Shown: one piece after another, positions 255 through 27,427 of the stretch
Layout of the letters: each line of letters starts with the position of its first letter
How positions within the stretch are numbered: position 1 is the stretch's first letter
IMG/VR virus record: IMGVR_UViG_3300037524_000601
Location: 1 to 28,907 of that record
Origin: a virus
Lineage: Duplodnaviria > Caudoviricetes
Strand: one strand, 5' to 3'
Length of the DNA: 28,907 bases
The notes under the pieces: model-generated
What the model was told of the DNA's origin: nothing
Database searches by the model: none
Seen by the model: the letters and a program-made list of their open reading frames with translations, nothing else
Position numbers and translations under genes: made by a program

Positions 255-457
255 CCCCCGACCTGGCCTCGCAGCTTATCGCGGACTGCCGCGCGCTCAT
301 CGCCACCATGTATCCGGTCATCGACGCGCTCGCCATCGAACTCGCGGGCGGAGGCGGACATCAGGCACTCAACGCAAGGCTTCGCTCTGGACCTCTGGAG
401 GAAGCTGGGAATGAAGACCGAGGTGTTCTCGGCCGTCCGTCTTCGCCCGCGTTATAG
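251..457 (+). CDS. Hypothetical protein (68 aa)
   Basis: ATGA-coupled to the upstream gene; no recognisable motif. Confidence 0.5.
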   Translation: MTPDLASQLIADCRALIATMYPVIDALAIELAGGGGHQALNARLRSGPLEEAGNEDRGVLGRPSSPAL

Positions 458-460
458 ACG

Positions 461-485
461 AAAACGGCCCGGCGGCAACCGGGCC
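461..485 (-). terminator. Hairpin, possible minus-strand intrinsic terminator
   Basis: GGCCCGG-cggcaa-CCGGGCC (466-485) preceded by AAAA (461-464), giving a short U-tract on the minus strand. Confidence 0.4.
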
Positions 486-511
486 AGTCAGGCACAGGAA
501 AGGAACCCGAT

Positions 512-1267
512 ATGCCCGACGCCGTGATTATCGCACACAGCGACCAGCTCGACCAACTCGGCACCGCGCTCGCCAAGGCGCAGGCCGAGATCGTCGGCGC
601 CAAGAAGGACAGCGCCAACCCGTTCTTCAAGTCCGACTACGCCGACTTGGCGTCCGTCTGGACGGCGTGCCGCAAGCCGCTGACGGCCAATGGGCTGTCG
701 GTGGTGCAGATGCCGATCATGGAGGCGGGGGCGGTGGCGGTGGCCACGCTGCTCCTACACGCCAGCGGCCAGTGGGTGCGCTCGACGCTCCATGCCAACC
801 CGAAGGATTTGGGGCCCCAGGCCGTGGGCAGCGTCATCACCTACCTTCGACGCTACGCGCTCGCGGCGATGGCTGGCGTGCCGCAGATTGACGACGACGG
901 CAACGCGGGCGAGGGCCGGAACGGGGCGCACACGGCCACGCGCCCGACCACGCCTGCCCACCAGCCACCGTCCCGCGAAGCCGGCGACGAACCCGACGAC
1001 CCCTTCGGCAACCTGGACGACGAGGACCGGCAGGCGACGGCGCTGGCCGACCGGCAGGCGAAGCCGGCGGCGCCCGCGTCCTGGCCGCGCATCAGCGAGC
1101 CGCAGCAGAAGCGGCTGTTCGCCCTGTCGATGAAGGCGGGCTGGACCAAGGACAGCCTGCGCGAGTTCCTCGCCTCGCGGGGCTACGAGCACAGCAAGGA
1201 CATCGCCCGCGCCCACTACGACGACCTCTGCACCGCGCTCGAAGCGGGGCCACAGGGGGCCGTATGA
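512..1267 (+). CDS. erf: ERF-family single-strand annealing protein (phage recombinase)
   Basis: ALAKAQ...K..NPFFKSDYADL, LLLHASGQW, GSVITYLRRYALAAMAGV..DDDGN are ERF hallmarks; extra C-terminal helical domain; SD AGGA upstream. Confidence 0.95.
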   Translation: MPDAVIIAHSDQLDQLGTALAKAQAEIVGAKKDSANPFFKSDYADLASVWTACRKPLTANGLSVVQMPIMEAGAVAVATLLLHASGQWVRSTLHANPKDLGPQAVGSVITYLRRYALAAMAGVPQIDDDGNAGEGRNGAHTATRPTTPAHQPPSREAGDEPDDPFGNLDDEDRQATALADRQAKPAAPASWPRISEPQQKRLFALSMKAGWTKDSLREFLASRGYEHSKDIARAHYDDLCTALEAGPQGAV

Positions 1268-1491
1268 CGCGCCACGACGCCTACCGCATGATGCAGACGA
1301 TCAACCGGCAGGATTTCGAGATGGGCTGGACGGATCGCGGCACCTACCAGCGCACCGAGCTCGCGCTCGCCGTGGATTGGGACGGCGAGGCCGAGCGGCG
1401 ACTGGCCCAGGCTAAGGCGATCCGCGCGGAACGCCTCGCGGCCAAGCGGGAGGATCAGGACCAGCTCATGGACGCGGAGGTGTGGGCATGA
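1264..1491 (+). CDS. Hypothetical protein (75 aa)
   Basis: ATGA coupling at both ends; GC3-rich codons. Confidence 0.7.
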   Translation: MTRHDAYRMMQTINRQDFEMGWTDRGTYQRTELALAVDWDGEAERRLAQAKAIRAERLAAKREDQDQLMDAEVWA

Positions 1492-1718
1492 GCCTCCTGA
1501 GCCGCCTGCTCGCCTGGCTGGTCCCCGACCCGATCGCGGTGCGCGAGCCGCGGCGCCGCCTGCGCGCCACCTGTGAATACTGCGGCAAGGAGATCGCCGT
1601 CGTCGCCTCGACCGGCCACCTCTGGAAGCACACCTGCGTGACCCCCGACTACGGCCCCGCCCCAGGGCCGATGGACCCGCACGACCGGATCGACGAACTG
1701 GAGCGAACCGATGACTGA
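1488..1718 (+). CDS. Small putative zinc-binding protein
   Basis: ATG at 1488 overlapping the previous stop, SD GGAGG; CEYC...HLWKHTC. Confidence 0.65.
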   Translation: MSLLSRLLAWLVPDPIAVREPRRRLRATCEYCGKEIAVVASTGHLWKHTCVTPDYGPAPGPMDPHDRIDELERTDD

Positions 1719-1965
1719 CCCGCTGCGCGGCGTGGCCGACGCGACGATCGTGTGGGCGGGCGTCTGGTGCCTCATCGGCTGGTGCGCGGGGCTCGCTCTC
1801 GGCCTCTCGTTGCGGTGGCGGGACGGCAGCCGGGCCGAGATCCGCCGGCTGCGGATGGCGCTGGAGGACAGCGACCGGCAACTGACGCAGCAGTTCGCCA
1901 CGGCCGACCGCATGGCGACGATGCTGGCCGAGCAGGCGGGACGGCCCGGAGGGAGGGCGGCGTGA
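1711..1965 (+). CDS. Small membrane protein with coiled-coil tail
   Basis: Hydrophobic segment IVWAGVWCLIGWCAGLALGLSL followed by a helical C-terminus; SD GGAG. Confidence 0.65.
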   Translation: MTDPLRGVADATIVWAGVWCLIGWCAGLALGLSLRWRDGSRAEIRRLRMALEDSDRQLTQQFATADRMATMLAEQAGRPGGRAA

Positions 1966-2258
1966 ATCAGGCGACGCTCTTCGATCGGGTGAACCCGGAG
2001 CCGTGCCGCGAGCCCGGCACGCCCTACGCCGCGCACCAGGCCGAGCTCGCCTCGGAAGCGCAGCGGCTCGAGAGCGCGAAGGCGCGCATCCTCGCGCGGC
2101 TCCAAGCGGGCCCGGCGACGAATCACGAACTCAACGGCATCGCCTTTCGCTACGGCGCGCGCCTACTGGAACTGCGCCGGGAGGGCCACGCCATCACCAG
2201 CGAGCAGGTCGGCGGCGGCGTCTGGGTCTACGCGCTGGCCGCAAAGGAGACGCGATGA
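1962..2258 (+). CDS. Winged helix-turn-helix protein
   Basis: GTG start coupled to the previous stop; RILARL..GPATNHEL....RYGARLLELRREGHAI...VWVY fits small phage wHTH proteins. Confidence 0.75.
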   Translation: MNQATLFDRVNPEPCREPGTPYAAHQAELASEAQRLESAKARILARLQAGPATNHELNGIAFRYGARLLELRREGHAITSEQVGGGVWVYALAAKETR

Positions 2259-2362
2259 CCTTCCTTTTCGGATTCCTCGTGGGCCTCGTGGTCGGCGTGC
2301 CGGCGGGCCTCTGGGCGATGGCGATGGCGATGATGGCGCGCAGAAGCGAGGCGGGCGTATGA
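2255..2362 (+). CDS. Tiny membrane protein (35 aa)
   Basis: MTFLFGFLVGLVVGVPAGLWAMAMAMMARRSEAGV; SD AAGGAG; ATGA coupling. Confidence 0.65.
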   Translation: MTFLFGFLVGLVVGVPAGLWAMAMAMMARRSEAGV

Positions 2363-3102
2363 CCCATTGGTCTGACGCGCTAGTGCGGCTGGGGGCGTGC
2401 GGGGACGCGGTGGCGTGGGCGCGGACGCAGCCGGACTTAGCGACGGCGTGGGCGGCGTGCGAGCGCGGCGAATGGCTGCTGTGGCTGGTGGGGAGCAAGC
2501 CTGGGCCTACCGGCGGGGATCTGCATCGGCGGTTGGTGCTGGTGGCGTGCGGGTGTGCGCGGTTGGCGCTCCCGGCGTGGCAAGCGCGGTATCCCGATGA
2601 CGGCAGGCCCGAGGCGGCGATCCTCGCGGCGGAGGCGTGGGCGCTTGATCCGACCGAGGCGGCCAATCGAGCCGCCTGCGCCGCGAGTGACGCCGCGTGG
2701 GCCGCGAGTGACGCCGCGTGGGCCGCGTGGGCCGCCGCGAGTGACGCCGCGTGGGCCGCCGCGAGGTACGCCGCGAGGGACGCGAGTTACGCCGCGAGTT
2801 ACGCCGCGAGGGCCGCCGCGAGGGCCGCCGCGTGGGCCGCGAGTGACGCCGCGAGGGCCGCCGCGAGGGCCGCCGCGAGGGCCGCCGCGAGGGCCGCCGC
2901 GAGGGCCGCGAGTGACGCCGCGTGGGCCGCGTGGGACGCCGCGTGGGCCGCGAGTGCCGCCGCGAGTGACGCCGCGTGGGCCGCGAGTGCCGCCGCGCGT
3001 GCCGCGAGGGACGCGAGTTACGCCGCGAGTGACGTGACGCGCCGCCAGTGCGCGGACATCGTGCGGTCCATCATTGACTGTCCGAGTCTGGAGGGCGTAT
3101 GA
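2359..3102 (+). CDS. Ala-rich repeat protein with Imm5-like helical N-terminal part
   Basis: LGAC..AV.W...WLLWL and ACGCARLALPAW..YPDDGRPEAAI.AA, then a long AAW/AAR/ASDA repeat tract and a Q.ADIVR end, a layout common in phage accessory proteins. Confidence 0.75.
   Translation: MTHWSDALVRLGACGDAVAWARTQPDLATAWAACERGEWLLWLVGSKPGPTGGDLHRRLVLVACGCARLALPAWQARYPDDGRPEAAILAAEAWALDPTEAANRAACAASDAAWAASDAAWAAWAAASDAAWAAARYAARDASYAASYAARAAARAAAWAASDAARAAARAAARAAARAAARAASDAAWAAWDAAWAASAAASDAAWAASAAARAARDASYAASDVTRRQCADIVRSIIDCPSLEGV
2680..3033 (+). repeat. Coding tandem repeat of 9/12/21-nt units
   Basis: Units such as GCCGCGAGTGACGCCGCGTGG and GCCGCGAGGGCC; general form GCCGCG-WGK-KMC. Confidence 0.95.
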
Positions 3103-3839
3103 GCCAGACTGCGTCGGTTTGCCCGCACTGTGGGTTGGTCGGGGCGCACCTGCTGTCCTGCGAGTATGCGCGGCGCGTGACGCCGCCCGACGCCCCTGAC
3201 GCGCTGCGCCGAGCGGTGAATGCGTGCTGCACCTGTGGGGGCATGGGGCCGGATGATCCCGGCGTGTGTCCCGCGTGCCGGGTGTGGCATCTGCTCGCTC
3301 AGGGACGCGAGGCGTCTGCGCCGGACGAACTATTCGGAGTTTCCGAACAGTTGGCGGCGGCGCTGGCGTGGGCCGACGGAGTGTCTGATGGCGTGACTGA
3401 CGTGCGGGAGAACCCTTGCGGGGCCAGCGATACCATCGTCACCCTCGCGGCTGCGGTGCGCGAATTACAGTCCAAGGTCAAGTATTTGGACTATCACCAG
3501 CGGTTGTCGCTAGAAAACTCGCTGGAACAGGAAGACCGAGCGGCCAAGGCCGAGGCCGCGCTCGCGGAGGCGAACTCCGACTGCTCTAGGTTCTGCGGAG
3601 ACAACGAGCGGTTGTTGAAGGCGCTGAACGCCGAAACCGTAGAGGGCGCCCTACACCATATTGCCGCGCTTCAGCAAACGCTGAAGGCGCGTGAGGCCGC
3701 GCTCGCGGAGCTGCGGGGGCATAACCTCGCGCTGCGTCTCGCCATCGTCACCGCGCTCGACAGCCCCGCGATGATGGGATCAGAGGACATCGACGTTCTC
3801 ACGGCGGCACTAGAGGCCGCGAAGGAGCCTACGCTATGA
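3099..3839 (+). CDS. Modular Cys-rich / coiled-coil accessory protein (Ead/Ea22-like architecture)
   Basis: CPHC..H..C and CCTC..CPAC motifs followed by coiled coil; shares nucleotide blocks with 4241-4588. Confidence 0.7.
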   Translation: MSQTASVCPHCGLVGAHLLSCEYARRVTPPDAPDALRRAVNACCTCGGMGPDDPGVCPACRVWHLLAQGREASAPDELFGVSEQLAAALAWADGVSDGVTDVRENPCGASDTIVTLAAAVRELQSKVKYLDYHQRLSLENSLEQEDRAAKAEAALAEANSDCSRFCGDNERLLKALNAETVEGALHHIAALQQTLKAREAALAELRGHNLALRLAIVTALDSPAMMGSEDIDVLTAALEAAKEPTL

Positions 3840-9869: not shown

Positions 9870-9878
9870 GAGACGATC

Positions 9879-11483
9879 ATGGCCAGCGACACGACGGCGA
9901 CCCTGACCCACCCGATCTACGCCACGCTGCAGCCCACCTGGGAGCTGCTCCAGGCCGCATACCGGGGCGATGGGGGGTTCCTCGATGGGAGCGCCCTGGT
10001 CGCCCACCCCCGCGAGATTATCTACAAGCGGGACGTCAACGGCGTGGTGACGACGGAGGTGCAGGCCTACAAGGACAAGTACCGCCGTAGGCAGTCGCTC
10101 GCGCGCTACGAGAACTTCGCGCGCACGATCGTCGATACGTTCATCGCGCATCTGTTCGCCAAGTCGATCACACGCAACACCGAAAACGTGCCCGGCCTGG
10201 AGGACTGGTGGGAGGACGTGGACGGGGCCGACTCGAACATCGCGGACCACATGCAGCAGCAGCAGGCGCTGGCGATGGTGTATGGCCATGTCGTCGTGCT
10301 GATGGACCGCGAGACGACGGACGGGCCCGCCGTCACCCGCGCCCAGCAGGGCCAGCCGGTGCTGCGCGTCTACTCGCCGCTCGATGTGCTGGACTGGATC
10401 TGGGACCGCGGGCGCTACCGGGCGCTCAAGGTCGTGGAAGCGGTGCCGCGCGACGACCTGGCGGTGGCGGGGGCGAGCGCGGACGCCGACCTGCGCGGCG
10501 GGGGCGATGGCGCGCCGAAGGAACTGACCTACGTGGTCTGGACCGAGACGGACTGGACGCGCTACGACGGCAAGGGGAAGGCGATCGACTCTGGCGCGCA
10601 TGGGTTCGGGCGCGTGCCGGCGGTCATCCACCGCGCCCGGCCGGTGCCCGGGATGCCCTCGATTGGCGCGTCGACGCTGGGTGACCCGAAACTGCACCGG
10701 GACCATTACAACCTCGTGAGCGAACTGCGCGAACTCCTGCGCAGCCAGACCTTCTCGATGCTGAATATCCAACTGGGCCAGGACGAGGCGGTCGAGGAAG
10801 CGCGGGGCCGGCTGGGGGATGCGGCCAGCGTCGAGACGGTGCTCTGGAGCAAGGGCTCAGCCGGGTTCATTGCCCCGCCCGAGGGCCCCGCCGCCGTCTA
10901 TCAGCAGGAGATTGAGGCGCTCGAACGCAAGCTCTACCGCATGGCGGGGCTGCCCTGGGAAGGCGATAGCGCCGCGGCCGAGAGCGCGGACAGCCGCCGG
11001 CTCAAGGCGATGGACCTGAACCGCCTACTGGCCATGTACGCGGACGAGGCCGAGCGCGTGGAGTATCAGATCGCCGCGTTGTGGCACACGGCCACCACGG
11101 GCGAGACGGACCCCGCGCGCGTGGCGCAGGCGCTCGATCAGGTCGTGATCCACTACCCGGATGAGTTTGCCACGATTGATACGGCGCAGGCGGCGGCGGA
11201 TGTGCGGGATGTGGTGACGATGCAGTTGGGCCCCACGGCGACCGCCGAAGCCCGCAAGAGGGCCGTGCCGATTGTGCTGCCCGATCTGGACCAGGCGACA
11301 ACGGACACGGTGGCGTCGGAAATCGACCAGGCGACGGTGGAGTCCGACAAGCTCAACCAGCAGACCAAGCAGGCCGAGTTCCGGGCGCTGGTAAGCGCCG
11401 CCTCACCCGTGAAGCCCGGTCAGCAGATGGCCGATGGCGAGAAGGACGGCGGGCAGATACAGGACGCGGGGGCGAGGGCGTAG
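9879..11483 (+). CDS. Portal protein
   Basis: Follows terL; 534 aa; HP.Y...W....AY.G, Y..R...A.YEN, DVDG, HGFGRVP, AESA motifs of SPP1/DUF4055-type portals. Confidence 0.9.
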   Translation: MASDTTATLTHPIYATLQPTWELLQAAYRGDGGFLDGSALVAHPREIIYKRDVNGVVTTEVQAYKDKYRRRQSLARYENFARTIVDTFIAHLFAKSITRNTENVPGLEDWWEDVDGADSNIADHMQQQQALAMVYGHVVVLMDRETTDGPAVTRAQQGQPVLRVYSPLDVLDWIWDRGRYRALKVVEAVPRDDLAVAGASADADLRGGGDGAPKELTYVVWTETDWTRYDGKGKAIDSGAHGFGRVPAVIHRARPVPGMPSIGASTLGDPKLHRDHYNLVSELRELLRSQTFSMLNIQLGQDEAVEEARGRLGDAASVETVLWSKGSAGFIAPPEGPAAVYQQEIEALERKLYRMAGLPWEGDSAAAESADSRRLKAMDLNRLLAMYADEAERVEYQIAALWHTATTGETDPARVAQALDQVVIHYPDEFATIDTAQAAADVRDVVTMQLGPTATAEARKRAVPIVLPDLDQATTDTVASEIDQATVESDKLNQQTKQAEFRALVSAASPVKPGQQMADGEKDGGQIQDAGARA

Positions 11484-11486
11484 CGG

Positions 11487-12389
11487 ATGCCCATCGACCC
11501 CCGGAAGGCTCGGGCGCAGGGCGCGCAACTGGATGCCGCCATCACCAGCCAGGTGGCGGCGTTCGAGGCTGACCTGTACGACGTGTGGCGCCTGCTGCGC
11601 GAGCGCATCGTGCGGCTCACGAACGAGTTGCTCTCCGAGGGTGGGCGGGTCATCAGCACGCGCGTCAACCTGGGCATCGCCCGTGCCGCGGCGGGGCAGC
11701 TTGAGGCGGTCCTCGCCGAGTCCGGGTATGCCGGGCTGGTCGAGGAGGCGCTGACCGTGATGGGGACGCTCGGCAAGTATCAAGGGCTGGGCCAGACGAC
11801 CGTGGCGCGGGTGGAGCGGGCGGCGGCCTGGTCGGTGGAGAGCCTGGACGCCTTCCGCGAGATGAAGCTCGCCGCGCTGCTGGATGTGCCCGCCGCGGTC
11901 ATCCGGCAGGTCGAGCAGACGCTCCTGCGCGGCGTGGTGGGGGCGCAGAGCCGGGCGGAACTGCTCAACGAACTGCTGAGCCAGTTGGACGTGTCGCTGC
12001 CGCAGGCGCGCACCATCTACGACACGGCGCTCGGCGAGTTCAGCCGGATTGCGGTGACCAGCACCAGCACGGGCGAGGCCACTGAGGCGTTCCTGTACAG
12101 CGGGCCGATCGACGGTCTGACGCGGCCCTTCTGCCTGGAGCGGGTGGGCAAGGTCTATGTCCGCGCCGACATCGAGCAGATGGACAATGGGCAACTCGAC
12201 AACACCCTAATCACGGGCGGGGGCTACAACTGCCGGCACACCTGGCTCCCGGTGCCGCCGGATGACCCGCTGGAGGCCCTCGCGGGCACGGGCCGGTATG
12301 CCGACGAGGCCTATGCGCAGGACGTGCAGGAGGCCGAGGCCGCACGGGCGCGCGTCAAGGCGGCGAAGCGCAAGGCGCGGGGGAACTAG
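11487..12389 (+). CDS. Minor head protein, MuF / SPP1 gp7-like
   Basis: YSGPIDGLTRPFC...GK...GGYNCRHTW; located after the portal. Confidence 0.85.
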   Translation: MPIDPRKARAQGAQLDAAITSQVAAFEADLYDVWRLLRERIVRLTNELLSEGGRVISTRVNLGIARAAAGQLEAVLAESGYAGLVEEALTVMGTLGKYQGLGQTTVARVERAAAWSVESLDAFREMKLAALLDVPAAVIRQVEQTLLRGVVGAQSRAELLNELLSQLDVSLPQARTIYDTALGEFSRIAVTSTSTGEATEAFLYSGPIDGLTRPFCLERVGKVYVRADIEQMDNGQLDNTLITGGGYNCRHTWLPVPPDDPLEALAGTGRYADEAYAQDVQEAEAARARVKAAKRKARGN

Positions 12390-16425: not shown

Positions 16426-17040
16426 ATGGCGCAACTGGCCGTGCCGAACTCGATCGTGAGCGCGACCTGGGTCGGCACGGTGGCCGGGCTCACGGACGCC
16501 AGCGATAGTACCTACCTTGAATCCCCGGCTGACCCCACGGCGGCCAGCACGTTCCTCTGCTCCCTGAGTTCGATCGCGGACCCCCTCATCCATACCGCCC
16601 ACCAGCTGCGCGTGCGAACGGCGCTGTACCCGAGCACGGGCGCGGCGCTCAGCCTGGCGCTGTCGCTGGAGAACGCGGACGATAGCAGTGTCGTGGCGAG
16701 CTGGACGGTCGTGGCACCCGTGGCGGTGGCCGAGTCGGTGCTAAGCATCTCCGAGGCGCAAGCGGCGCTGATTCATAGTTACAGCGGCCTGCGCGTGCGC
16801 GGGTATGCCGAGGCGGCATCGTACACCTACTTCGTCTGGTCAGCGGTGGGCGGCGCGACGAGCTACGTGCTGCAGATACGCCCGTCCACCTCGGCCACTT
16901 ACGACACGTACAACGCCGATGTGGGCAACGTCCTCACGTATGGCGTGGCGCTCGCGTCGGCGACGTACTACAGTCGCGTGGTGCCGTATGTAGGTGGAAC
17001 GGCGCTCACGCCCACGGCGGAACAGGCGGTGACGGTATGA
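16426..17040 (+). CDS. Two-domain adaptor-like protein: beta-sandwich lacking its last strand plus FN3-like domain lacking its first strand
   Basis: Residues 1-130 align with pieces of 18812, 19702 and 21057; residues 131-204 read YFVWSAVGGATSYVLQ...TYYSRVVPY (FN3 W / Y / YY-x-RV pattern). Confidence 0.65.
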   Translation: MAQLAVPNSIVSATWVGTVAGLTDASDSTYLESPADPTAASTFLCSLSSIADPLIHTAHQLRVRTALYPSTGAALSLALSLENADDSSVVASWTVVAPVAVAESVLSISEAQAALIHSYSGLRVRGYAEAASYTYFVWSAVGGATSYVLQIRPSTSATYDTYNADVGNVLTYGVALASATYYSRVVPYVGGTALTPTAEQAVTV

Positions 17041-18500
17041 GGCGATGGCTGATGGCGGCGGCGCTGGTCGTGCTGGTGCCGGTCGAGGTGTGGGCGGCGT
17101 GTACAGGCGCGAGTCCGCGATGGGCGAGTAGCGCCGACTACACATCCCTGTGTGGATGCATCAAGGGAGCCACGGCGGGCGACACGATTACCGTCACCGG
17201 GGACGCGACGTGGACGACGTACTGTGAGTTCACGCGAGGCGTGAATCTAGTTGGAGTAGGCAATCCGACGATCACGGGCAAGACGCTCATGCTGTGGTGG
17301 CACTATAACGCGGCGGCGCAAACCGCGCACGATACGCTCACGATTAAGGGGTTTACGTTTGACGCCGACGAAGCCTCGCAGACGCAATTATCCGACGTGG
17401 GCATTATTACGCTCGGGTATACGACTGGTGGCAACTACGTATCGGTCGTGATCGTTGGCAATATCTTCAAGAACACGGAGGGACGCGGGATCTACAACTG
17501 GGGCCGCACGCATGGCGTCATTTCGCAGAACACGTTTGACCGGGTGCGTGTCCCGTTTGGACTCTATGGAGGCAACCACGATCAGTGGCTCGTAGACACA
17601 CAAGCCTTTGGTGGCGATCAGCAAGTCTATTTCGAGGGCAACCTGATTCAGTACTCGTCGGCTTTTCCCTACTCGCCGCGTGCTGTCTCTGGGGGAAACG
17701 GGGGGCAGGGTGTCATCCGGTACAACGATTGGAATATGCACAAGGAGTCGGGGACCGGGGATGACCTGTGGGAACTGCACGGCCTACAGCCCATGTTTAA
17801 GTCTGATGGCGTCACGTATTGTGGAACGGCGGTCGATTGCGACTTGTCCGTCAAGAAGGCAGATTCATACTCGAACATGAACAGCGAGTGGTATGGGAAC
17901 AACATCTATGGCGTGAATACAGGCCAGTGGATGATGGAATTACGCGGGGGGTGGGCGCTCCTGCACCACAACGCGTACGCGGCAACCTCTGGCAGCGGCT
18001 ACGGCATCACCTACAAAGAGTACTCCTGCGACATTACCCAGCGGTATTACGCCACGCATGGTTCATTCGTCATGCACATTGCGAATACCTACGTCTGGAA
18101 CAACTTTGACAAGGGGACTCGTTTCGGGCCGATCAACAAGAACTTCGATCTCTGCGCCGACAACGTGACGCCGACCAACGACCCGAACAAGTACACCATC
18201 ACCGAGAACGTCGATTACTGGAACGACAAGTACGCCACCTTTGATGGCACCTCCGGGGTGGGCTGTGGCACGATCGCGGCGCGTCCAGCCACTTGCACCA
18301 CGGGCGTCGGGTACTGGGTCACGGATCAGTCCTGCACGAGCCTGACGGGGATGATCGGGCGCTCACCCACCACGCCCATCAGCGGCGCCCTGTACAAATG
18401 CACGGCCACGAATACGTGGACGAGTTACTACACCCCCTACACCTACCCGCATCCGCTGGTGACGACGCTGCCCGCACCCGCCGCCGTGAGGGTCAAATGA
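17037..18500 (+). CDS. Secreted right-handed beta-helix (pectin-lyase-like) protein, Cys-rich
   Basis: Sec-type signal MRRWLMAAALVVLVPVEVWA; A.AGDTI.V..G; I.GFTFD; repeated x-I-x-x-N-x-F coils; 12 Cys; ends YTPYTYPHPL...PAPAAVRVK; lower GC by eye. Confidence 0.75.
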   Translation: MRRWLMAAALVVLVPVEVWAACTGASPRWASSADYTSLCGCIKGATAGDTITVTGDATWTTYCEFTRGVNLVGVGNPTITGKTLMLWWHYNAAAQTAHDTLTIKGFTFDADEASQTQLSDVGIITLGYTTGGNYVSVVIVGNIFKNTEGRGIYNWGRTHGVISQNTFDRVRVPFGLYGGNHDQWLVDTQAFGGDQQVYFEGNLIQYSSAFPYSPRAVSGGNGGQGVIRYNDWNMHKESGTGDDLWELHGLQPMFKSDGVTYCGTAVDCDLSVKKADSYSNMNSEWYGNNIYGVNTGQWMMELRGGWALLHHNAYAATSGSGYGITYKEYSCDITQRYYATHGSFVMHIANTYVWNNFDKGTRFGPINKNFDLCADNVTPTNDPNKYTITENVDYWNDKYATFDGTSGVGCGTIAARPATCTTGVGYWVTDQSCTSLTGMIGRSPTTPISGALYKCTATNTWTSYYTPYTYPHPLVTTLPAPAAVRVK

Positions 18501-18811
18501 GACGCTGGCTGATCGCGCTCGCCCTCGTCATCTTCGCGCTGCTCGTCGCGCTCGCGGTGTCGGCCAAACAGACGCCCGCGCAGATCGAGTGGACGCATTC
18601 CGGCGTTGGCGTCGTCAACTTTGAGTGCGTCATCGACGGTGTGGTGACCGGCAACCTGGGCCTGCCCACCCCGTCAGGCACAACCTATACGGCCAACCTC
18701 TCCCTGTGCGGGACGATTGCGGCGGGCCAGCATACGCTGGCGATTCAGGCGTGCAACGGGGCGGGATGCGTACCGTCAGCCTTGTTGACCCTTGTAAAAC
18801 TGGAGCCGTAG
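18497..18811 (+). CDS. Small secreted FN3/Ig-like protein
   Basis: ATG at 18497 (ATGA overlap); signal MRRWLIALALVIFALLVALAVSA; IEW...G.HTLAIQACN..GC..S; 4 Cys. Confidence 0.75.
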   Translation: MRRWLIALALVIFALLVALAVSAKQTPAQIEWTHSGVGVVNFECVIDGVVTGNLGLPTPSGTTYTANLSLCGTIAAGQHTLAIQACNGAGCVPSALLTLVKLEP

Positions 18812-19702
18812 ATGGCCGAGCAATGGTTCGGGAACACGACGGGCGACACTGATGCCGACATCTATTCCTACCCCGCGTGGAACAACGATGCGGTTGCCGC
18901 GTTTGTCTGTCCCGCTGATGGTGCGTTGACGGGTCTGCGGGCGAAAGTGCGCGTAGCGAGTGGGAGCCAGAGCATCCGCATCGCGCTGTATGCCGTGGCG
19001 GGGGATCGTGATTTCATCGCGCAAGGTAGCGCGGCCATCACCGTCTCGAACACGTCCTATGAGACGAAGACCCATACGGCCTTCGTGGATAGAACCGGGG
19101 CATCGGTAACGCCCAGCCTCACCAGTGGCACGCACTATATTGCGGTCATCGCTGGTCACAGTGGGACCGTTTATTGCGCCCGTAACACTACGTCAAGCGG
19201 TCTGCTCTACCGGCCCGGTGGATCATGGAACATCACCAACGCTGACGCATTCCCGGCGACACTCGAAGGCGGCACCGAATACGCGGGGCCAGTCTGCCTA
19301 GAGATCGGCGTGACGCCCGCCGCCACCGGCCAGGATCTGACCGGGGCCACGCTGGCCTCGGGCGCGTCCCTGCTCGCGGGCACGCTGGCCGTGGGCGCCG
19401 TCACGGTCACCGGCGCCACGCTCGCGGCGGGTTCGGCGCTGCTCGCTGCCACGCTGGCGCGGAACCAGATCGCGTTGCCGGTGCTGGACATCGCGGATGG
19501 CAACTGGATCTCGTACCCCTCCGGGATACCCGGCAACAACGTGGATATGTGGGCGGATCTGGACGAGACCGTGCCGAACGATACCAACGCGATTCGGAGC
19601 GGCGCGACCCCCTCGAATGACACCTACACCTGCGCGTTGTCGAGCCTGGCCACGCCCGGGGCTGGCGACGTGATTGTGCGCGTGCGCGCCCGGTACTGCT
19701 GA
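18812..19702 (+). CDS. Modular structural protein: beta-rich cargo domain, two stalk repeats, C-terminal half-domain
   Basis: IRIALY...LTSGTHYIAV jelly-roll-like N-part; LTGATLASGASLLAGTL-type repeat twice; C-terminal QIALP..D..GNW...LDE...VRVRA. Confidence 0.75.
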   Translation: MAEQWFGNTTGDTDADIYSYPAWNNDAVAAFVCPADGALTGLRAKVRVASGSQSIRIALYAVAGDRDFIAQGSAAITVSNTSYETKTHTAFVDRTGASVTPSLTSGTHYIAVIAGHSGTVYCARNTTSSGLLYRPGGSWNITNADAFPATLEGGTEYAGPVCLEIGVTPAATGQDLTGATLASGASLLAGTLAVGAVTVTGATLAAGSALLAATLARNQIALPVLDIADGNWISYPSGIPGNNVDMWADLDETVPNDTNAIRSGATPSNDTYTCALSSLATPGAGDVIVRVRARYC

Positions 19703-21057
19703 TGGCCTGGGCCGTCAATCGCCCTGCCGCCGGCACCGCGTATAGCCTGCCCACCCGTCTGTTCCCGGTCGATAACTGGTGGAACCTCAACGTCTCGGCC
19801 GCGCCGCTGGACGTGCGCTCGTCGGCTCTCATCGACTTCTGTGCGGGCGGGTCGCCCGATCTCGGCGGCAATCCGGCCCTCGACCTGGGGCTGGCGACTG
19901 ACTGGGGCAACAACTACGGGATGCCCTACTGCACGGTGAGTGGGGACCACCCGACCATCGTGTTTGCTTACGTCGGCTACAGCGGTGGGGCGAGCGGAGA
20001 CGATACTCGCGGGTTCCCCATTCCTGCCGCATCCATTACCGAAGCAGGTTGGACCGAGGATCTGGCCGGAACGATTGCGGCCCCCAAGTGGCTCGTTTCG
20101 ACAGGTAGTTACCGTGACCGCCACCTCCTCATCTTCGACGTCGATAACCAGTATCTCTACGAGATTTACCAGCCGTACTACAACGCGACGGCCAGCCCGC
20201 AGTCGGGCTTTATCGATCCAGACTACCCCGAGTACGGGACGATCTACCCATATGGCAACACGACCGTCATTCAACCCGGCACGTATGCCTGTCAGAGTTG
20301 TTCGTTCTGGGACGCCAAGACGAATGCCTACCGACCGCTGGGTGTGACGTCATCGGACGCGGCGGGACTCCAGGTGCTGCCGGGCCTCGTACAGTACGAC
20401 GAAATCATCAGCGGCCTACCGATCACGCACGCGCATCGGATGTGCCTGTATTCCAACTCCAGCGACGAGCCGAAGTACGTCTGGCCCGCCACGCATGAAG
20501 CGGGGTCATGGACGGCCAATCACCCGCCGCTCGGCACGCGGTTCCGGCTCAAGGCCTCCTACAACGCCACGGGCGAGTACGCGGTCTGCCAGACCTTCAT
20601 CCAGTCCCTGAAGGACTACGGCCTCATCTTTGTAGACCGTGGCGGGCATGGGCAGATCACCGGCACCAACGATACGCGGTGGGGCAGCAGCAGCGATTAC
20701 CCCCGGGTGCAGCTGGTGGACACCATCAGCCGGATCGACTTCGCCGATCTCGAAGTCGTCCAACTCGGCTGGACCCCCGCCACGACCACGAGTTACGTGC
20801 GCCTGTCGTGGCTGGGGCTGGACGTGCCGAGCCTGCCCTACCAATATGCGCGCCCCACCGCGGATCTCGACGCGGGCACCTGGGTGCCGTCGAGTGGCAG
20901 CACGCTGGCGCCGATGCTGGATGAGACGATCGCCGACGACGCGGACGACATCAGTTCGACGGGGAGTGGCGTCGAAACCGCCCTGCTGCGGCTGCGCGGG
21001 GCCAACCGGCCGATCGCGGGTCCGATCCGCTTGCGCGTCCGCGCCAAGAGGCACTGA
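19702..21057 (+). CDS. Modular protein: bacterial-type domain of unknown function, orphan strand, C-terminal half-domain
   Basis: FP.DNWWN..V..AP, YGMP, DRH, DAAGL.VLPGLV.YDE, YVWPA.H, PP.G.RFRLK, YG.I.VD.G; tail YVRLSWLGLDVP followed by QYARP..D..GTW...LDE...LRVRA. Confidence 0.8.
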   Translation: MAWAVNRPAAGTAYSLPTRLFPVDNWWNLNVSAAPLDVRSSALIDFCAGGSPDLGGNPALDLGLATDWGNNYGMPYCTVSGDHPTIVFAYVGYSGGASGDDTRGFPIPAASITEAGWTEDLAGTIAAPKWLVSTGSYRDRHLLIFDVDNQYLYEIYQPYYNATASPQSGFIDPDYPEYGTIYPYGNTTVIQPGTYACQSCSFWDAKTNAYRPLGVTSSDAAGLQVLPGLVQYDEIISGLPITHAHRMCLYSNSSDEPKYVWPATHEAGSWTANHPPLGTRFRLKASYNATGEYAVCQTFIQSLKDYGLIFVDRGGHGQITGTNDTRWGSSSDYPRVQLVDTISRIDFADLEVVQLGWTPATTTSYVRLSWLGLDVPSLPYQYARPTADLDAGTWVPSSGSTLAPMLDETIADDADDISSTGSGVETALLRLRGANRPIAGPIRLRVRAKRH

Positions 21058-23723
21058 TGGCCCTCACCCTCGACAAGTTCGCGTTCGGGCTGGATAGCGG
21101 CACCGAGTCCACGCACCCGTGGATTCCCGCCGGGACCAACGCGCACTATACCGGGGCCCCGCTCGATACGAACCTGCTGCTGCGCATCAACGTGCAGGAG
21201 TCGGACGTGACGGCCGTGGCGAATCTGGCCTGCACCTGGCAGTACAGCCGCAACGGGGGCGCGTGGACGAACATCACGACCACCTCAACTGTGGCGCGGG
21301 CGGTGCCCGTGGCCGTGTTTGCGAATGGCGCAAACTGCACCCAGCGGTTGGCCGGCACGGGCAGCTTTGAAACGAGCGGCGCGGGCTGTACCGAGGACGG
21401 CACGAGCGGCGGCAGCGCGAACGACCTGCTGCGCGCGGGCTGCACCGAACAAGAACTCGGCTTTCAGTTGCGATCCGCAGATCTGGTGGCCGGCGATTAC
21501 ATCGATTTCCGCGTGATCGGCTCCACCGCGATCACGGTGAATGCCGCCAACACGCCGCGCGCGTATATCGCCAAGGCCGTCGGGCTCATCAATATTGCCA
21601 CGGCCTCAGTCCTGCTGGCGTGCGCCGTCACGGTGGGCGCCGTCACCCTCGCGCCCCCCGCGCTGACGTCAACGGTCGATGTGCGGGACGCGCACGTGCT
21701 GACCGGCCCGGTGAACCAGGCGCTCAGTCTGGACACGATCCTAGGCGGCGCCAGCCTCACGGTCCCGACCGTCTCGCCCTCGCAGGCGCTCAGTCCGCCG
21801 ACCATCAGCGCCTGGTCGGCCCTGACCGCGCCGATCGTGCATCGGTTGGTGCTTGAGCTGTACGAAGGCACGACGCTCCGGGCCACGCGCGACTGGCCGC
21901 TCACCTCCACATTGACCACGCAGGCGTTCACGCTCACCACGGACGAGCGCACCGCCATCACCAACTGGGCCACGCTGCGCCTGTCGTGTGTCGCCGATGG
22001 GGTGCAGGTCGAGGTCAGCCAAGTCTACGTCGAGCTGCCGGAAGGGTTGGCGGCGGGCGGCCTGACGCAAGACGACACGATCAGCACCGGGGCGGTCCTC
22101 TCGGCGCCCGTGGTCGCGCCCGGCGCGGTGACCCTGCTCGCGCCCACGATCCCGACCGGCCTCACGCTGCTGGAGCCCCGCCTCGGGGGGATTCTCGACG
22201 GCGCCACGGTCGCCGCCGGGTCGGCCCTCTACGCGCCCACGGTGGCCGGGGCGGCCGTGACCCTCGTCCTGGGCGACACGATCGCGGCGGGCAGCACCGT
22301 GGCGGCGCCGACTCTGGAAGGCTGCACCGTCAGTCTGCTGCAAGGCAGCACCCTCATCGCCTCGACCGACCTGACACTGGGCGCCTCGCTCGCCACGTTC
22401 GCCTGGACGCTGACCACCGACCAGCGCAACGCCGTGACGGACTGGACCGCGCTGCGCGTGTCCGTTGTGGCCAGCGGGCGGCAGGTCGAAGTTAGCCAAC
22501 TCTACGCGGAACTCCCCGCATCGTCGGGCAACGACCTCTCTCTCCCCACGATCGGCAGCGGCCTGGTCCTGAACGAACCGGCCCTCGACGTGTTGGTGCT
22601 CGAACCGCCCACAATTGACAGCGGGAGCGTCGTCTACGAGCCGGCCCTCACCGTGCCGGTGATCCTCGCGCGGTTGTACGAGGGCACCACGCTGATCGTG
22701 CAGGTCGAGGTGCCGGTCCCGGACGTGTTCACGACGGCCGAGTTCCTGTTTGACGACAACGAATTGGCGGGGGTGAGCGACTGGTCGGACCTGCGACTGG
22801 AACTCGTCATCGAAGACGAGGTGGGGCGCGTTTCGTGGGCGGAACTCGAAACGCCCGCCGCCGATGCGGTGCAGCCGCCGACGATCGCGGCGGGCAGCGC
22901 GCTCACGGCGCCGGTCCTCACGCCCGCGGCGGCGACCCTCATCCTGCCGTTCCGCGCGAGCAGTGCGGCGCTGACGGCGCCTGCGCTCACGACCGGGGCG
23001 GTGCCCCTCTACCTGTCCACGATCGGCACGGGCGCCGCCCTGGCGGCCCCCAGTCTGGCAGTCGCCGGCGCGTCGCTGGACCTCACGGACACGATTGCGA
23101 CGGCGGCCACGCTGGCGGCGCCGACCGTGGCGTCTGGCGCGACCACGCTGACCGGCACGACGATCATCACGGGGATCGGGCTGGCCTACCCGCCCGCGCT
23201 CGATGTGGGCGCGGTGACGCTCGACGGGGCGACGCTGGACACGGGCGCGGCCCTCCTGGCGCCGGTGGTGACGGTGGCCAGTGCCAGCCTGGTGCTGACC
23301 GAGACGATGGCCAGCGGGGCCGCGCTCACCGCGCCGTCGATGGCCGCGCCGCTTGAGACGTTGCAGGCGCCGACCCTGGCCAGCACGGCCGCGCTCTCCG
23401 CGCCGACCCTGAACGTCTCGCCCGTGTTCCTCGTGGGCGCGTTCCTACCAGACGCCACGCAGGTCTCGGCGCCGTCGCTGACCCTGGCCTTGGTGAGGTT
23501 GACGGTCCCCGTCCTCGACGCCAGCCCCACGGTCTACGCGCCGGCGGTCATCGCCGGGCAACTGGTGGACGGCGCGCCCGCGCTCGCCGGCACGGTCCTG
23601 TACGCACCCGTCGTCAGCTTCATGTTTACCGGCGTGGTGTCCACCCGACGCACGTACACGCCGGACCCTGACGCGCGCACCTTTACGCCGGACCCCGAGG
23701 TCCGGGTCTGGATTGCCACATGA
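21057..23723 (+). CDS. Long fibre/stalk protein with about 21 repeats of about 22-24 aa and three inserted half-domains
   Basis: Repeat consensus roughly AVTL..PTI..G..L.AP.V; three related 66-aa inserts; C-terminal RTYTPDPDARTFTPDPEVR. Confidence 0.85.
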   Translation: MALTLDKFAFGLDSGTESTHPWIPAGTNAHYTGAPLDTNLLLRINVQESDVTAVANLACTWQYSRNGGAWTNITTTSTVARAVPVAVFANGANCTQRLAGTGSFETSGAGCTEDGTSGGSANDLLRAGCTEQELGFQLRSADLVAGDYIDFRVIGSTAITVNAANTPRAYIAKAVGLINIATASVLLACAVTVGAVTLAPPALTSTVDVRDAHVLTGPVNQALSLDTILGGASLTVPTVSPSQALSPPTISAWSALTAPIVHRLVLELYEGTTLRATRDWPLTSTLTTQAFTLTTDERTAITNWATLRLSCVADGVQVEVSQVYVELPEGLAAGGLTQDDTISTGAVLSAPVVAPGAVTLLAPTIPTGLTLLEPRLGGILDGATVAAGSALYAPTVAGAAVTLVLGDTIAAGSTVAAPTLEGCTVSLLQGSTLIASTDLTLGASLATFAWTLTTDQRNAVTDWTALRVSVVASGRQVEVSQLYAELPASSGNDLSLPTIGSGLVLNEPALDVLVLEPPTIDSGSVVYEPALTVPVILARLYEGTTLIVQVEVPVPDVFTTAEFLFDDNELAGVSDWSDLRLELVIEDEVGRVSWAELETPAADAVQPPTIAAGSALTAPVLTPAAATLILPFRASSAALTAPALTTGAVPLYLSTIGTGAALAAPSLAVAGASLDLTDTIATAATLAAPTVASGATTLTGTTIITGIGLAYPPALDVGAVTLDGATLDTGAALLAPVVTVASASLVLTETMASGAALTAPSMAAPLETLQAPTLASTAALSAPTLNVSPVFLVGAFLPDATQVSAPSLTLALVRLTVPVLDASPTVYAPAVIAGQLVDGAPALAGTVLYAPVVSFMFTGVVSTRRTYTPDPDARTFTPDPEVRVWIAT

Positions 23724-24010
23724 GCCAGAACACCCTCGACCCGCACGACCCGAGCGACGTGAAGGATTACGCCATCAACTGGGCCGCGCTGCTCATCGGG
23801 GATGGCGAGGCGGCGATCAGCAGTTCGACGTGGGGCGCGTCCGTTCCGACCGGCCTCACCATCAGTTCGACCACGGCCACCGCGACGCTGGCCGTCGTCT
23901 GGGTGACCGGCGGCGAGCCGGGCCGCACCTACGGGTTGACGAACAAGATCACCACGCCGCTGGGCCGCACGCACGAGCGCACGATTTTCGTGCCGTGTAA
24001 GCAGCTCTAG
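23720..24010 (+). CDS. Small fibre-adaptor/base-like virion protein
   Basis: HDPSDVKDYAINW...I.SSTW....GLT...VWVTGG..G..Y...N.ITT..GR..ER pattern, which I recognise from genes that follow fibre genes. Confidence 0.75.
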   Translation: MSQNTLDPHDPSDVKDYAINWAALLIGDGEAAISSSTWGASVPTGLTISSTTATATLAVVWVTGGEPGRTYGLTNKITTPLGRTHERTIFVPCKQL

Positions 24011-24267: not shown

Positions 24268-24482
24268 CCGCGCGCAAGAAGGCGCTCCCGAAGCGCCAAA
24301 CAATTAGTGACCGAATTGGCGAAGATGTAAGGAGGGTGATCGCCACGCATCCAACACTGGAAGAGGACCAGCGCAAAACGCTGCTCAGAGACTTTCTGGC
24401 GCTAATGGAATCTCAACGTGCGCTACTGATGATTTGGAGTGGCATCAAGTACCATGTCCAGGCCACACGGAGGCTCAAGTGA
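24264..24482 (+). CDS. Small helical hypothetical protein (lower GC)
   Basis: Coupled on both sides; DVRRVIATHPTL versus DVARIIERHPDL in the previous gene. Confidence 0.65.
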   Translation: MTARKKALPKRQTISDRIGEDVRRVIATHPTLEEDQRKTLLRDFLALMESQRALLMIWSGIKYHVQATRRLK

Positions 24483-27427
24483 CCGCGCGCCAGTGGGTGT
24501 TCTACCTGGAGTCGGTCCCGTTCACCAAGGACGTGATCGAGGGGCGAGGCTCGCTCGGTGGCAGCGAGTCGGCCGCCATCGGCATGATGCAGGCGCTCGC
24601 CCGCCGCGGCCATGACGTCCAGTGCTTCGCCACGAAACTGGAGCAGCCCGGTGAGTATGCCGGGGTGACCTGGCATCGCGCCGAGTCGGACCTCGGGTCG
24701 GCGCTGTCGTTCCTGACGCCAGATTGCTTCGTGTCGCTGCGCATGGTGACGCCGTTCGTGCAGGCCCGCATCCCGGCGAGTTGGCACGTCCTCTGGTGCG
24801 AGGACTTACTGATCGATCTCAGCCTGACGGGCACGCTCTCGCAGGTCGATGAGCTCTGGTACGTGAGCGCGTATCACCGCCAGCAATGGGAGGGCCGCGA
24901 GAAGTTCCTGCAGCCGCTCGGGTGGGTGACGCAGAACGGGATCGACCCCGCCCACTATCCGACGCAGGTCTGGCCAAGTGGCGCGTCCTGGGACGATGGC
25001 GTGCGGGTTACGCGCGATCCGCACCGCTACATCTACATCAGCCGGCCCGAACGGGCGCTCAAACCGCTGCTCGAGATGTGGCCGGCGATCCGCGCCGCGG
25101 ACCCGATGGCGACCCTGGGCATCTGCCGGTACAAGTCCATGTACGACGGCGAGGGGTCGAACGTCCAGCAGATGGTGGACACGTTCGACCAGATGACCCA
25201 GATCGTCGCGGAGCAGACGGGCGGGATCGAGTATCTGGGCCAACTCGGCAAGCGACGGCTCGCCGAAGCCATCGCGCGCAGCCGGGCGATGCTCTACCCG
25301 GGCGTGGCGAGCTTCGCCGAGACGGGGTGCATCGCCGCCACCGAGGCGCAGATGTGCGGCACGCCCCTGCTGGCCTCCTGGCGGGGGGCTCTGCCCGAGA
25401 CGCTGCATCCCGACGCGGGCGTGCTGCTGGCCGGCGACAGCGAGACACCCACCTACCAGGCCGCCTTCGTGGAGGCCGTGGCGCGCCTCCAGGCGCTGCC
25501 CGATCCCGCCTATCAGGCGATGCAGGAGGCCGGACGGCACCACGCGCAGGGCTACAGTTTCGACCGGCTGGCCGAGCAGTGGGAGCAGCACCTGGAGGCC
25601 AAGTTCGCCGAACGGTACGCGGCGCACGGCCCGGCGATTCTCCGCACGCTGCTGCACTACGACCAGCATGTGATGGCGCGGGACGTGGCGGCCGAGCTTG
25701 GAGACGATGGGGCCCTCAAACTCTGCGAGACGGTCATCGCCGGGCAGCATCAGACCGCCGAGGACTACGCCGAACACGCCATCAGCGATCCGGTGGCCGA
25801 GTCCCAGACGAATGAGCGGTTCCGCGAGGTGGTGTCGCTGGTCCAGACGCAGGGGCGCACCCCCCGGACGATCCTGGACGTGGCGTGCGGGAATGGCGCC
25901 TTGGCCCTCGCGCTGGCGCAGGCCTTCCCCGAGGCGCAGGTGATCGGCGTGGACTACTCCCCTGGGGTGTTGGCGATCGCGCGGGCGGGCGCGGAGGCGG
26001 CCGGGGTGGCGAATCGGGTTACGTTCAGCCAGGTGGACGCCACCACGGGCGCCTACCCGGCGGGGCCGTTTGACGTGGTGACCTGCTGCGAGTTCATCGA
26101 GCACGTCGAACACCCGCACGCGCTGATCAACCGGCTGGAAGCCGTGACCGCGGCGGACGGCCTGTGCGTGCTCACCTGTCCGGCGGGGCCGTTCGCGGAA
26201 CTCATGGCCAACCCTGAGACGCGCAAGCGCGGGCACCTGCACACCTACACGCATCAGCAGTTGTCGCGGTTGTTCCTGGGCCGGTCCTGGCACCTGCGGC
26301 ACCTGGGGATTGGCGCCACGCAGCGCGGCACGCCCGTGGGGTACTGGATCGTGTCGTGGCAGCCGGCGCCGGCGCAGCCCGCGCAGCCCGTAGACTGGCG
26401 CGCGGATGTGGTCGCCACGCGCCCGTACCAGCACCTGACCGCCATCATGATCATGAAGGATGGCGAGGACTGGCTGCGGAAGTGTCTCAAGGGACTGGCG
26501 TGCGTGGATGACGTGCTGATCCATGACACCGGCTCGACGGACGAGTCGGTGGCGATCGCGGAGAAGTGGGGGGCGACCGTCGTTCGCACCGACTGGCCGG
26601 ATTCGTTCGCCGTGGCCCGCAATCGGGTGCTTGCGGATGCGGAGGCGCGCGGGGCGGATTGGGTGCTCTGGATCGACTGCGACGAACAACTGGAGCACGG
26701 CGAGCGGTTGCGGCGGTATACCACCGGGGCGGGGCCGTTCATGGGCTACGTGCTCCGGCAGCAGCATTTGATGCTCGATGCGGCCTCGTTCCACGACAAG
26801 CCTGTCCGGCTGTTCAGGACCGGGCGTGGCATCAGGTTCTATGGGGCCATCCACGAACAGCCGGAAACGGCGCCGGACGCCGGGATCTGGCCGTCGCTCG
26901 AACTGCCCGACCTGGACATCCTGCACCTCGGGTATCACCGGGACGGGATGCGGCGGCACAAACTGCTGACCCGGAACCTGCCGCTGCTGCAGAAGCAGTT
27001 GATGGCCCCGGACGGGGAGCGGCGCCGGCTCGATACGGTGCTGTTCATTCGGGACTGCGCCAACATCGCGCAGTTCGAGATCGAGACGCACCGGGGCCAG
27101 GTGAGCCCGAAGGCGGGGCGGCACGCGCAGGGTGGGGTGCTGGCCTACCGTAAACACTTCAGCGACCCCGGCGACAAGTACCATGCGCTGGCGCGGCCGT
27201 TCTACGAAACCTGCCTACGGATTGCCGGGCAGGGGCTGGAGATTGGCTGGGCGCTCGGCGCGGGCGTGCCGAAGCTGGCCAGCAAGCTGGCCCCGGAAAC
27301 GTTCCACGCCTTTGACGTGGACGAGGCGCGGGCCGAGATCCACGCGCGCACGAACAGCATCCTAGCGCAACTGGTGACGCCGAGCGTGGACACGGAGCCG
27401 GTGATGACGAGAAGGGGGCACGCATGA
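24479..27427 (+). CDS. GT4 glycosyltransferase / class I SAM methyltransferase / GT2 glycosyltransferase fusion (about 982 aa)
   Basis: GTG at 24479 with SD GGAGG. GT-B: LGGSE..L..RGH.V, NGID, ETGCIAATEAQMCGTP. MTase: ILDVACGNG, GVDYS, FDVV...EFIEHV. GT-A: DTGSTD, F..ARN, WIDCDE, F.G.IHE. Confidence 0.92.
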   Translation: MTARQWVFYLESVPFTKDVIEGRGSLGGSESAAIGMMQALARRGHDVQCFATKLEQPGEYAGVTWHRAESDLGSALSFLTPDCFVSLRMVTPFVQARIPASWHVLWCEDLLIDLSLTGTLSQVDELWYVSAYHRQQWEGREKFLQPLGWVTQNGIDPAHYPTQVWPSGASWDDGVRVTRDPHRYIYISRPERALKPLLEMWPAIRAADPMATLGICRYKSMYDGEGSNVQQMVDTFDQMTQIVAEQTGGIEYLGQLGKRRLAEAIARSRAMLYPGVASFAETGCIAATEAQMCGTPLLASWRGALPETLHPDAGVLLAGDSETPTYQAAFVEAVARLQALPDPAYQAMQEAGRHHAQGYSFDRLAEQWEQHLEAKFAERYAAHGPAILRTLLHYDQHVMARDVAAELGDDGALKLCETVIAGQHQTAEDYAEHAISDPVAESQTNERFREVVSLVQTQGRTPRTILDVACGNGALALALAQAFPEAQVIGVDYSPGVLAIARAGAEAAGVANRVTFSQVDATTGAYPAGPFDVVTCCEFIEHVEHPHALINRLEAVTAADGLCVLTCPAGPFAELMANPETRKRGHLHTYTHQQLSRLFLGRSWHLRHLGIGATQRGTPVGYWIVSWQPAPAQPAQPVDWRADVVATRPYQHLTAIMIMKDGEDWLRKCLKGLACVDDVLIHDTGSTDESVAIAEKWGATVVRTDWPDSFAVARNRVLADAEARGADWVLWIDCDEQLEHGERLRRYTTGAGPFMGYVLRQQHLMLDAASFHDKPVRLFRTGRGIRFYGAIHEQPETAPDAGIWPSLELPDLDILHLGYHRDGMRRHKLLTRNLPLLQKQLMAPDGERRRLDTVLFIRDCANIAQFEIETHRGQVSPKAGRHAQGGVLAYRKHFSDPGDKYHALARPFYETCLRIAGQGLEIGWALGAGVPKLASKLAPETFHAFDVDEARAEIHARTNSILAQLVTPSVDTEPVMTRRGHA

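Follow-up and report, generated by a model that had tools for sequence, protein, structure and literature searches.

The window analysed here is the whole 28,907-nucleotide stretch of a Caudoviricetes virus record (IMGVR_UViG_3300037524_000601) and encodes a terminase, a portal, an SU10-type capsid protein and a Gp77-family fibre-tail adaptor, with gp15505, several cargo genes and the 888-residue stalk gp21057 lying between the capsid and adaptor genes (Table 1). gp15505 belongs to phrog_644 and weakly matches PDB 9D93 'tail wing arm, gp31' (E 7e-4); in a check for gp80-like fibre dimers it matched this protein and not GP4 gp80 by sequence. gp21057 has no PDB match, and its rope-like repeats and its neighbours suggest that it is a rope protein. 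Three C-terminal halves (C-halves) of a β-sandwich domain are present in the stalk, the first two 51% identical to each other, compared to two free N-terminal halves (N-halves) in the window. The strings quoted in the original prediction are all in place: the strand that ends each stalk C-half (VEVSQVYVELP, VEVSQLYAELP and GRVSWAELETP), the LRVRGYAEA stretch of gp16426, and the gp19702 peptide, an isolated last strand directly ahead of the N-half.

Table 1. Features of the split β-sandwich system, by window position or, for the giant relatives, by protein identifier
Feature	Position	Strand	Basis or remark
gp16426 sandwich, N-half and C-part without last strand; putative acceptor	16426..16815	+	family profile, alignment
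gp16426 FN3-like part, starting at strand B	16816..17037	+	strand A apparently absent, from alignment
gp17037 (beta-helix-like) C-terminal tail; candidate third-tier donor	18468..18497	+	presumed resemblance to FN3 strand A
gp18812 C-terminal free N-half, no loose strand ahead	19463..19699	+	best strand score -2.9
gp19702 exchangeable cargo domain	19702..20772	+	related to Acidobacteriota and other bacterial proteins; ends in FEVVxLGW-type motif
Loose last strand, putative donor strand	20794..20829	+	gp19702 residues 365-376; YVRLSWLGLDVP
Free sandwich N-half, gp19702 C-terminus; putative binder of stalk C-half	20839..21054	+	module of strand plus N-half 88/88 identical in P0013
Stalk (rope-like) protein gp21057, short repeats, three C-halves	21057..23723	+	phrog_8501 minor tail protein; homologues P0016, P0018
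Stalk C-half 1 with own last strand	21840..22043	+	strand 22008-22040
Stalk C-half 2 with own last strand	22317..22520	+	strand 22485-22517
Stalk C-half 3, divergent, net charge -12	22656..22859	+	strand 22824-22856
Fibre-tail adaptor, GP4 type	23720..24010	+	Pfam PF23148 Gp77, E 5.9e-22
Giant proteins, ~1,000 residues, three apparently nested sandwiches and two loose strands	P0022, P0027, P0030, P0035, P0043, P0065, P0134, P0145

A further strand system, of FN3 type, is suggested in the same region. The C-terminal part of gp16426 and gp18497 (18497-18811) both look like FN3 domains without strand A, and a tail that we take to be strand-A-like ends the beta-helix-like gp17037 and begins the relative in L008 (L008 11975-12010). 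The cassette of gp16426, gp18497 and beta-helix recurs in G412, an otherwise unrelated podophage (L103 10276-10569). gp17037 (17037-17100) and gp18497 (18497-18570) have near-identical signal-peptide-like starts, odd for virion proteins, of which L008 has a broken remnant. A 982-residue fusion of two glycosyltransferase domains and a methyltransferase lies among the structural genes (24479-27427), and sugar-modifying genes adjoin the fibre cassette in L008 and L103 too.

Profile comparison confirmed the gp19702 peptide as a detached homologue, by sequence, of the last strand of the phage β-sandwich domain. On a profile of the three window strands the peptide scored 14.9 bits and, of 5,327 windows taken from 19 proteins, resembled the last strand more than any other outside the stalk, with the next non-stalk window at 8.9 bits. 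A profile of four strands from two other phages gave 12.4 bits and placed the peptide second of 6,205 windows (next non-stalk 5.1), and the peptide reached 14.1 bits on a profile of nine non-window strands (next non-stalk 3.4) and 19.5 bits on a 29-strand profile. A six-frame scan ranked it fourth of 57,750, after the three stalk strands (13.6 vs 6.2), and its score was reached by 1-2 of 2,000 shuffles of gp19702. Two other origins of the peptide were considered and rejected: a remnant of FN3 strand B, given scores of -17.5 and -8.1 bits on two FN3 strand-B profiles compared to +14.1 on the last-strand profile, and a recent DNA duplication of a stalk strand, given only 11-21 identical bases of 33, the strand of C-half 3 being closest at 21/33. 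A scan with the loose-strand pattern (V, not L, before SW) returned five loci, all without a sandwich domain.

In sequence comparisons the loose strand travels with the N-half and not with the cargo. The gp19702 cargo, which has no Pfam or PHROG family, ends eight residues before the loose strand in a motif shared by 79 of 80 cargo relatives; none of these 79 has a last-strand-like sequence within 25 residues after the motif, and nine stop within eight residues of it. In P0013 the cargo has diverged from that of gp19702 (232/354 identical) and the module of strand plus N-half is identical at 88/88 positions, and in P0014 the same cargo (342/358) is joined directly to a gp16426-type module without the strand. 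Because the module stays constant under cargo change and the cargo occurs without the strand, we assign the strand to the N-half, and the reading that would have undone the original prediction, in which the peptide is an integral strand of the cargo, was discarded. Sequencing run X4, the only run not flagged as a potential source, contains the module with three differences, all at silent third codon positions, on a contig that starts at 20789 and continues through the stalk, and on another contig joins a P0013-like cargo end to the loose strand. gp16426 lies on a separate contig of the run at a depth similar to that of the module contig; 17146-19182 has almost no cover, so the run is uninformative on presence there. 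Atlas feature matches for the module are viral clusters of 87-96 residues at 0.77-0.79, under the bar. In seven of the 79 bacterial cargo relatives (L033, L034, L038, L039, L047, L054 and L078) the chain finishes with a single tail of 16-20 residues resembling FN3 strand A, which may be a donor-strand tag of bacterial origin borrowed by the phage system.

We next examined gp16426, whose C-part ends at LRVRGYAEA (16789-16815). The original claim that the domain stops here without its last strand is borne out by the family profile, whose alignment spans C-half positions 3-53 of 68 (probability 92, E 5e-7) and does not reach the strand. Every one of the 11 rows in the alignment, which represent 10 distinct proteins, lacks the strand, as does L103, and each runs straight from the C-part into the FN3-like part. 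The first FN3 strand, xFxW, follows the aromatic anchor by 19-23 residues in the gp16426 family, compared to exactly 19 for the last strand in 12/12 free C-halves, but on the last-strand profile it gives -1.6 to -17.7; it belongs to FN3, because it also follows a bare N-half in P0009, P0011, P0066 and P0135. An Atlas model folds gp16426 1-130 without the strand, like 146-residue viral proteins (TM 0.91, mean pLDDT 0.77), and the Atlas entries closest to this sandwich are viral, with lengths of 135-152 residues (TM 0.89-0.91; feature score 0.93-0.95). In an AF2 model built from just six sequences, a weak test, residues 1-57 fall under pLDDT 50, and Foldseek on the gp16426 model returned weak FN3-type matches only. 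The modelled fold suggests a jelly-roll-like architecture; a predicted likeness to CBM4/9-like jelly-rolls is one of fold (Atlas TM 0.65-0.68, under the family-naming bar), and the sandwich has no Pfam or PHROG match. In the tree, the N-halves of gp16426 type group in a clade (99/97) separate from the free ones. No loose strand shows at the four other loci that have a gp16426-type gene, but all of these loci end 0-2.7 kb downstream of the gene. The end of the gp16426 C-part (16789-16806) resembles free N-half ends and is a possible recombination point between gp16426-type and P0009/P0011-type proteins.

To place both cuts in a wider family, we searched gp19702 358-451 against 1.84 billion representatives and analysed the best 150 of 303 matches, which, minus the query, gave 149 relatives with 167 N-halves in a list biased to N-halves; strands were called at 8 bits. 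Among these listed matches, 51 N-halves are free and C-terminal, 67 are followed by a C-part that ends the protein at the penultimate strand, 18 are internal and strand-less, 17 complete, 2 truncated and 12 other. The gp16426-type cut is therefore common, with 67 of the 167 listed N-halves in proteins that end at it. None of these 67 listed proteins carries a strand scoring at least 8 bits anywhere in its chain, so that they would need a strand from another chain, or none. Internal strand-less domains follow a different bookkeeping: in 11 of 12 clean cases among the matches listed, every such domain is matched by one loose strand elsewhere in its chain, at a distance of up to about 300 residues. 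In seven of the eight giant proteins in the list (911-1034 residues), two strand-less domains and a complete one are followed by two loose strands, the eighth having one loose strand above threshold, and P0079, P0106, P0110 and P0123 each combine a single strand-less domain with a single loose strand that lies about 235-255 residues further on. The giant-protein layout suggests, by sequence order, nested insertion in the loop before the last strand, with the strand returning from afar. Left out of the same-chain count were P0073 and P0128, which are not clean, and P0149 and P0167, which end at or near the cut; hits in P0016 at 918 and P0159 at 276 are probable false strands at this threshold.

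A strand directly before the N-half, as in gp19702, occurs in 4 of 51 listed free N-halves compared to 0 of 103 other listed N-halves with upstream sequence (Fisher p 0.011, indicative since the sequences are related; 22 of 15,600 shuffles of the listed matches), with 4-9 residues between the loose strand and the RP motif of the N-half. Three of these four, P0047, P0089 and P0094, are proteins of 78-94 residues that consist of strand and N-half only, as does P0023 with a strand at 7.7-7.9 bits, and this layout is what would be expected of an adaptor. Among the matches listed, most free N-halves (47 of 51) and most small proteins made of an N-half alone (9 of 14) lack such a strand, and in this N-half-biased list donors number about 5 compared to 67 acceptors. 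Closest to the module among the listed matches is P0021, an 89-residue protein with 56% identity over the full length of the module, strand position included, where it scores -2.5. The longest contig is 9,406 for both P0021 and P0019, a three-C-half stalk, and 8,259 for both P0016, a cluster mate of P0019, and the gp16426 relative P0006; from these equal lengths, which are circumstantial, it is likely that a second phage has module, stalk and gp16426 type together. Free C-halves with their own strand occur in other stalks (P0016, P0018, L092 and L094). All 12 free C-halves examined have the last strand, five of them having been found by a pattern requiring it, and none of the stalks was seen to contain a free C-half that lacks it.

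Further layouts appeared among the loci recovered. In G409 (L093), a phage with a tape-measure-like gene, a C-half with its own last strand begins a tail protein and the sole N-half lies in the preceding rope-like protein, before a beta-helix and without a loose strand ahead (286-3759 and 9875-11944); the presence of a tape-measure-like gene means that the half/half joint is not confined to podophages. In G412, a stand-alone ORF (L104 1417-1797) combines a twin-arginine-like signal with a complete C-half and its strand among small genes far from the structural cluster, possibly an exported decoy or a spare socket. Seven stand-alone N-halves of 84-97 residues (P0025, P0029, P0037, P0053, P0054, P0095 and P0147) have other short hydrophobic N-terminal peptides and are possibly adaptors for further joint types, or plugs, and P0080, in which a complete C-half lies close to the N-terminus and an N-half finishes the chain, is a possible chain extender. 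Among 50,697 GenBank phage records there was no match for gp16426, P0023 or P0055 and one chance-level match for the stalk; 401 genomes of the class of G004 and five cargo-bearing genomes gave no match, nor did scans of viral contigs for the module, for gp19702, for P0016 or for the aligned stalks. L003-L006, where the match is confined to the FN3 stretch (L003 being unrelated on inspection), and L091, a chance match, were set aside.

These comparisons show a sandwich that is cut in two independent ways, in mid-domain between N-half and C-half and before the last strand. The strand plus N-half module has one plug of each kind and therefore would turn a stalk socket into a dock for second-cut proteins. 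In the mechanism we favor, the gp19702 N-half would complete a C-half of the stalk, which would keep its own strand, and the surplus gp19702 strand would insert into the open slot of the gp16426 sandwich, so that gp19702 would act as a cargo-bearing adaptor and give the tail fibre a further tier of exchangeable proteins that probably bind the host. The stalk partner of gp19702 may be the acidic third C-half, a guess from charge and strand likeness, and gp17037 may supply gp16426 with an FN3 strand A. On balance we consider it probable, with confidence somewhat above even, that the order runs from stalk to gp19702 to gp16426, because the strand is homologous to one that gp16426 lacks, loose strands are kept one per strand-less domain in relatives, and small adaptor-like proteins exist. 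A three-chain prediction of stalk C-half 3, gp19702 358-451 and gp16426 1-132 gave 0.89 in three runs and fell to 0.01 and 0.00 with gp16426 replaced; replacing gp19702 gave 0.73, under the required gap, and the prediction was given no weight for or against this order.

The original prediction that gp19702 donates its strand to gp16426 as a second tier is partly supported and stands as the best reading, the peptide being no cargo strand and relatives keeping a distant loose strand for each strand-less domain, with the identity of the donor contested by the stalk itself. With three C-halves and two free N-halves, one C-half may be spare and could serve gp16426 directly, leaving the gp19702 strand for another acceptor or none. 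The stalk strands score near or equal to the loose strand on the same profile, and G412 has a separate free C-half ORF with strand plus a gp16426 relative. However, C-halves 1 and 2 are similar enough that they may bind the same N-half, and the scheme leaves a conserved loose strand without a role, no other strand-less domain having been found in the window. The window may not be the whole phage, as a 36,352-base contig exists. We regard donation by the stalk as unlikely. We give still less weight to a strand-less sandwich that is stable alone or uses its own FN3 strand, with the gp19702 strand a relic of an ancestral domain junction. In its favor are the many listed proteins that end at the cut and the few listed donors, the xFxW spacing, which is near that of free C-halves, and the Atlas model, which does fold residues 1-130, yet the assignment of xFxW to FN3, the low-confidence AF2 start of gp16426 and the retention of the strand as the sole extra part of the 78-94-residue proteins all speak against it, and the one-to-one keeping of strands over long distances in relatives weakens the idea that gp16426 forms a complete sandwich by itself.

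The original prediction had also offered a circular permutation, in which the strand packs against the N-half of its own chain and takes the place of the stalk strand. The short link to the RP motif would permit a hairpin, and every free C-half examined has a strand that could be competed away, but the listed proteins that end at the cut carry no strand at all, and an upstream strand is found in 0/67 of these and 0/16 of the other strand-less domains listed. No permuted complete domain was seen, and gp19702, which ends after its N-half, does not have the order last strand, N-half, C-part in one chain. AF2 predicts the strand and N-half alone as unstructured (pLDDT 40.5, a weak test), stalk C-halves without a strand were not found, and a displaced stalk strand would still be free for gp16426; we therefore consider permutation very improbable. 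The parts would add up equally well in a domain swap, with the gp19702 strand and N-half completing the gp16426 C-part and the freed gp16426 N-half binding the stalk (stalk, gp16426, gp19702), and the bare N-halves joined to the same FN3 part in P0009 and its three counterparts are in keeping with such an exchange. The separate clade of gp16426-type N-halves, their short loop to the C-part and the return of the strand alone in single chains make a swap similarly hard to credit.

Donation of the gp19702 strand to gp16426 would follow a familiar principle. In chaperone-usher pili an incomplete β-sandwich takes one missing strand from another polypeptide; these donor-strand pili are linear polymers of like subunits with an N-terminal donor and require a chaperone and an usher, and TasA fibres reportedly use donor-strand complementation between polypeptides as well. 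By sequence, gp16426 is without one conserved strand and the homologous strand is loose in gp19702, so that, as in pili and TasA, an incomplete β-sandwich would be given one strand by another chain. In contrast to those systems, the arrangement proposed here would form a virion side branch with an internal or N-terminal donor beside a half-domain, and no chaperone, usher or pilin Ig family is present among the 19 late-region proteins, whose neighbours are terminase, portal and capsid genes. In Lactococcus phage Tuc2009, a 25-residue β-hairpin of BppU completes the sheet of the BppA β-sandwich and hangs this accessory host-binding protein on the virion (PMC4742702), and the gp19702 arrangement would be analogous in that a short extension of one protein completes the β-sandwich of its partner. 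As described there, the Tuc2009 joint is a single fixed baseplate joint of titin-like fold with a two-strand hairpin (PMC4742702), whereas the system proposed here would use one strand, in a different domain family, with two independent cut sites and an adaptor that bears both plugs. In the accessible portion of the work on podophages GP4 and A1002, a rope protein binds fibre dimers by β-sheet augmentation, and the A1002 nozzle is split into two proteins that fill each other's missing strands (PMC13730344). The window has a Gp77-family adaptor (PF23148) and a rope-like gene; the GP4 and A1002 account, in that portion, mentions no half-domains within the rope and no domain-completion side proteins (PMC13730344).

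Donor-strand complementation is known as a mechanism, and the gp19702 case would work alike; what is new is that the domain has a second cut site, that single chains give evidence of nesting and that a proposed adaptor links both joint types, and the main texts of the open-access literature yielded no paper on this split β-sandwich family. As a broader and more speculative picture, to which we give rather less than an even chance, a widespread family of uncultured phages may possess a connector kit in which half/half joints on the rope, last-strand joints in a second layer, adaptors that convert one into the other and FN3 strand-A joints in a third layer capture bacterial surface domains by a short tag and build a branching receptor-binding tree whose parts can be exchanged. 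Phage receptor-binding proteins are mostly anchored through dedicated folded domains. If the proposed mechanism is true, a 12-residue strand and a 70-residue half-domain would suffice to add and layer cargoes, and in natural recombinants the cargo boundary falls exactly at these strand and half-domain tags. It would further account for the dozens of hypothetical proteins that are one strand short, supply two compact peptide-protein connectors derived from a single scaffold, and account for the shuffling of several host-binding proteins per fibre in these phages.
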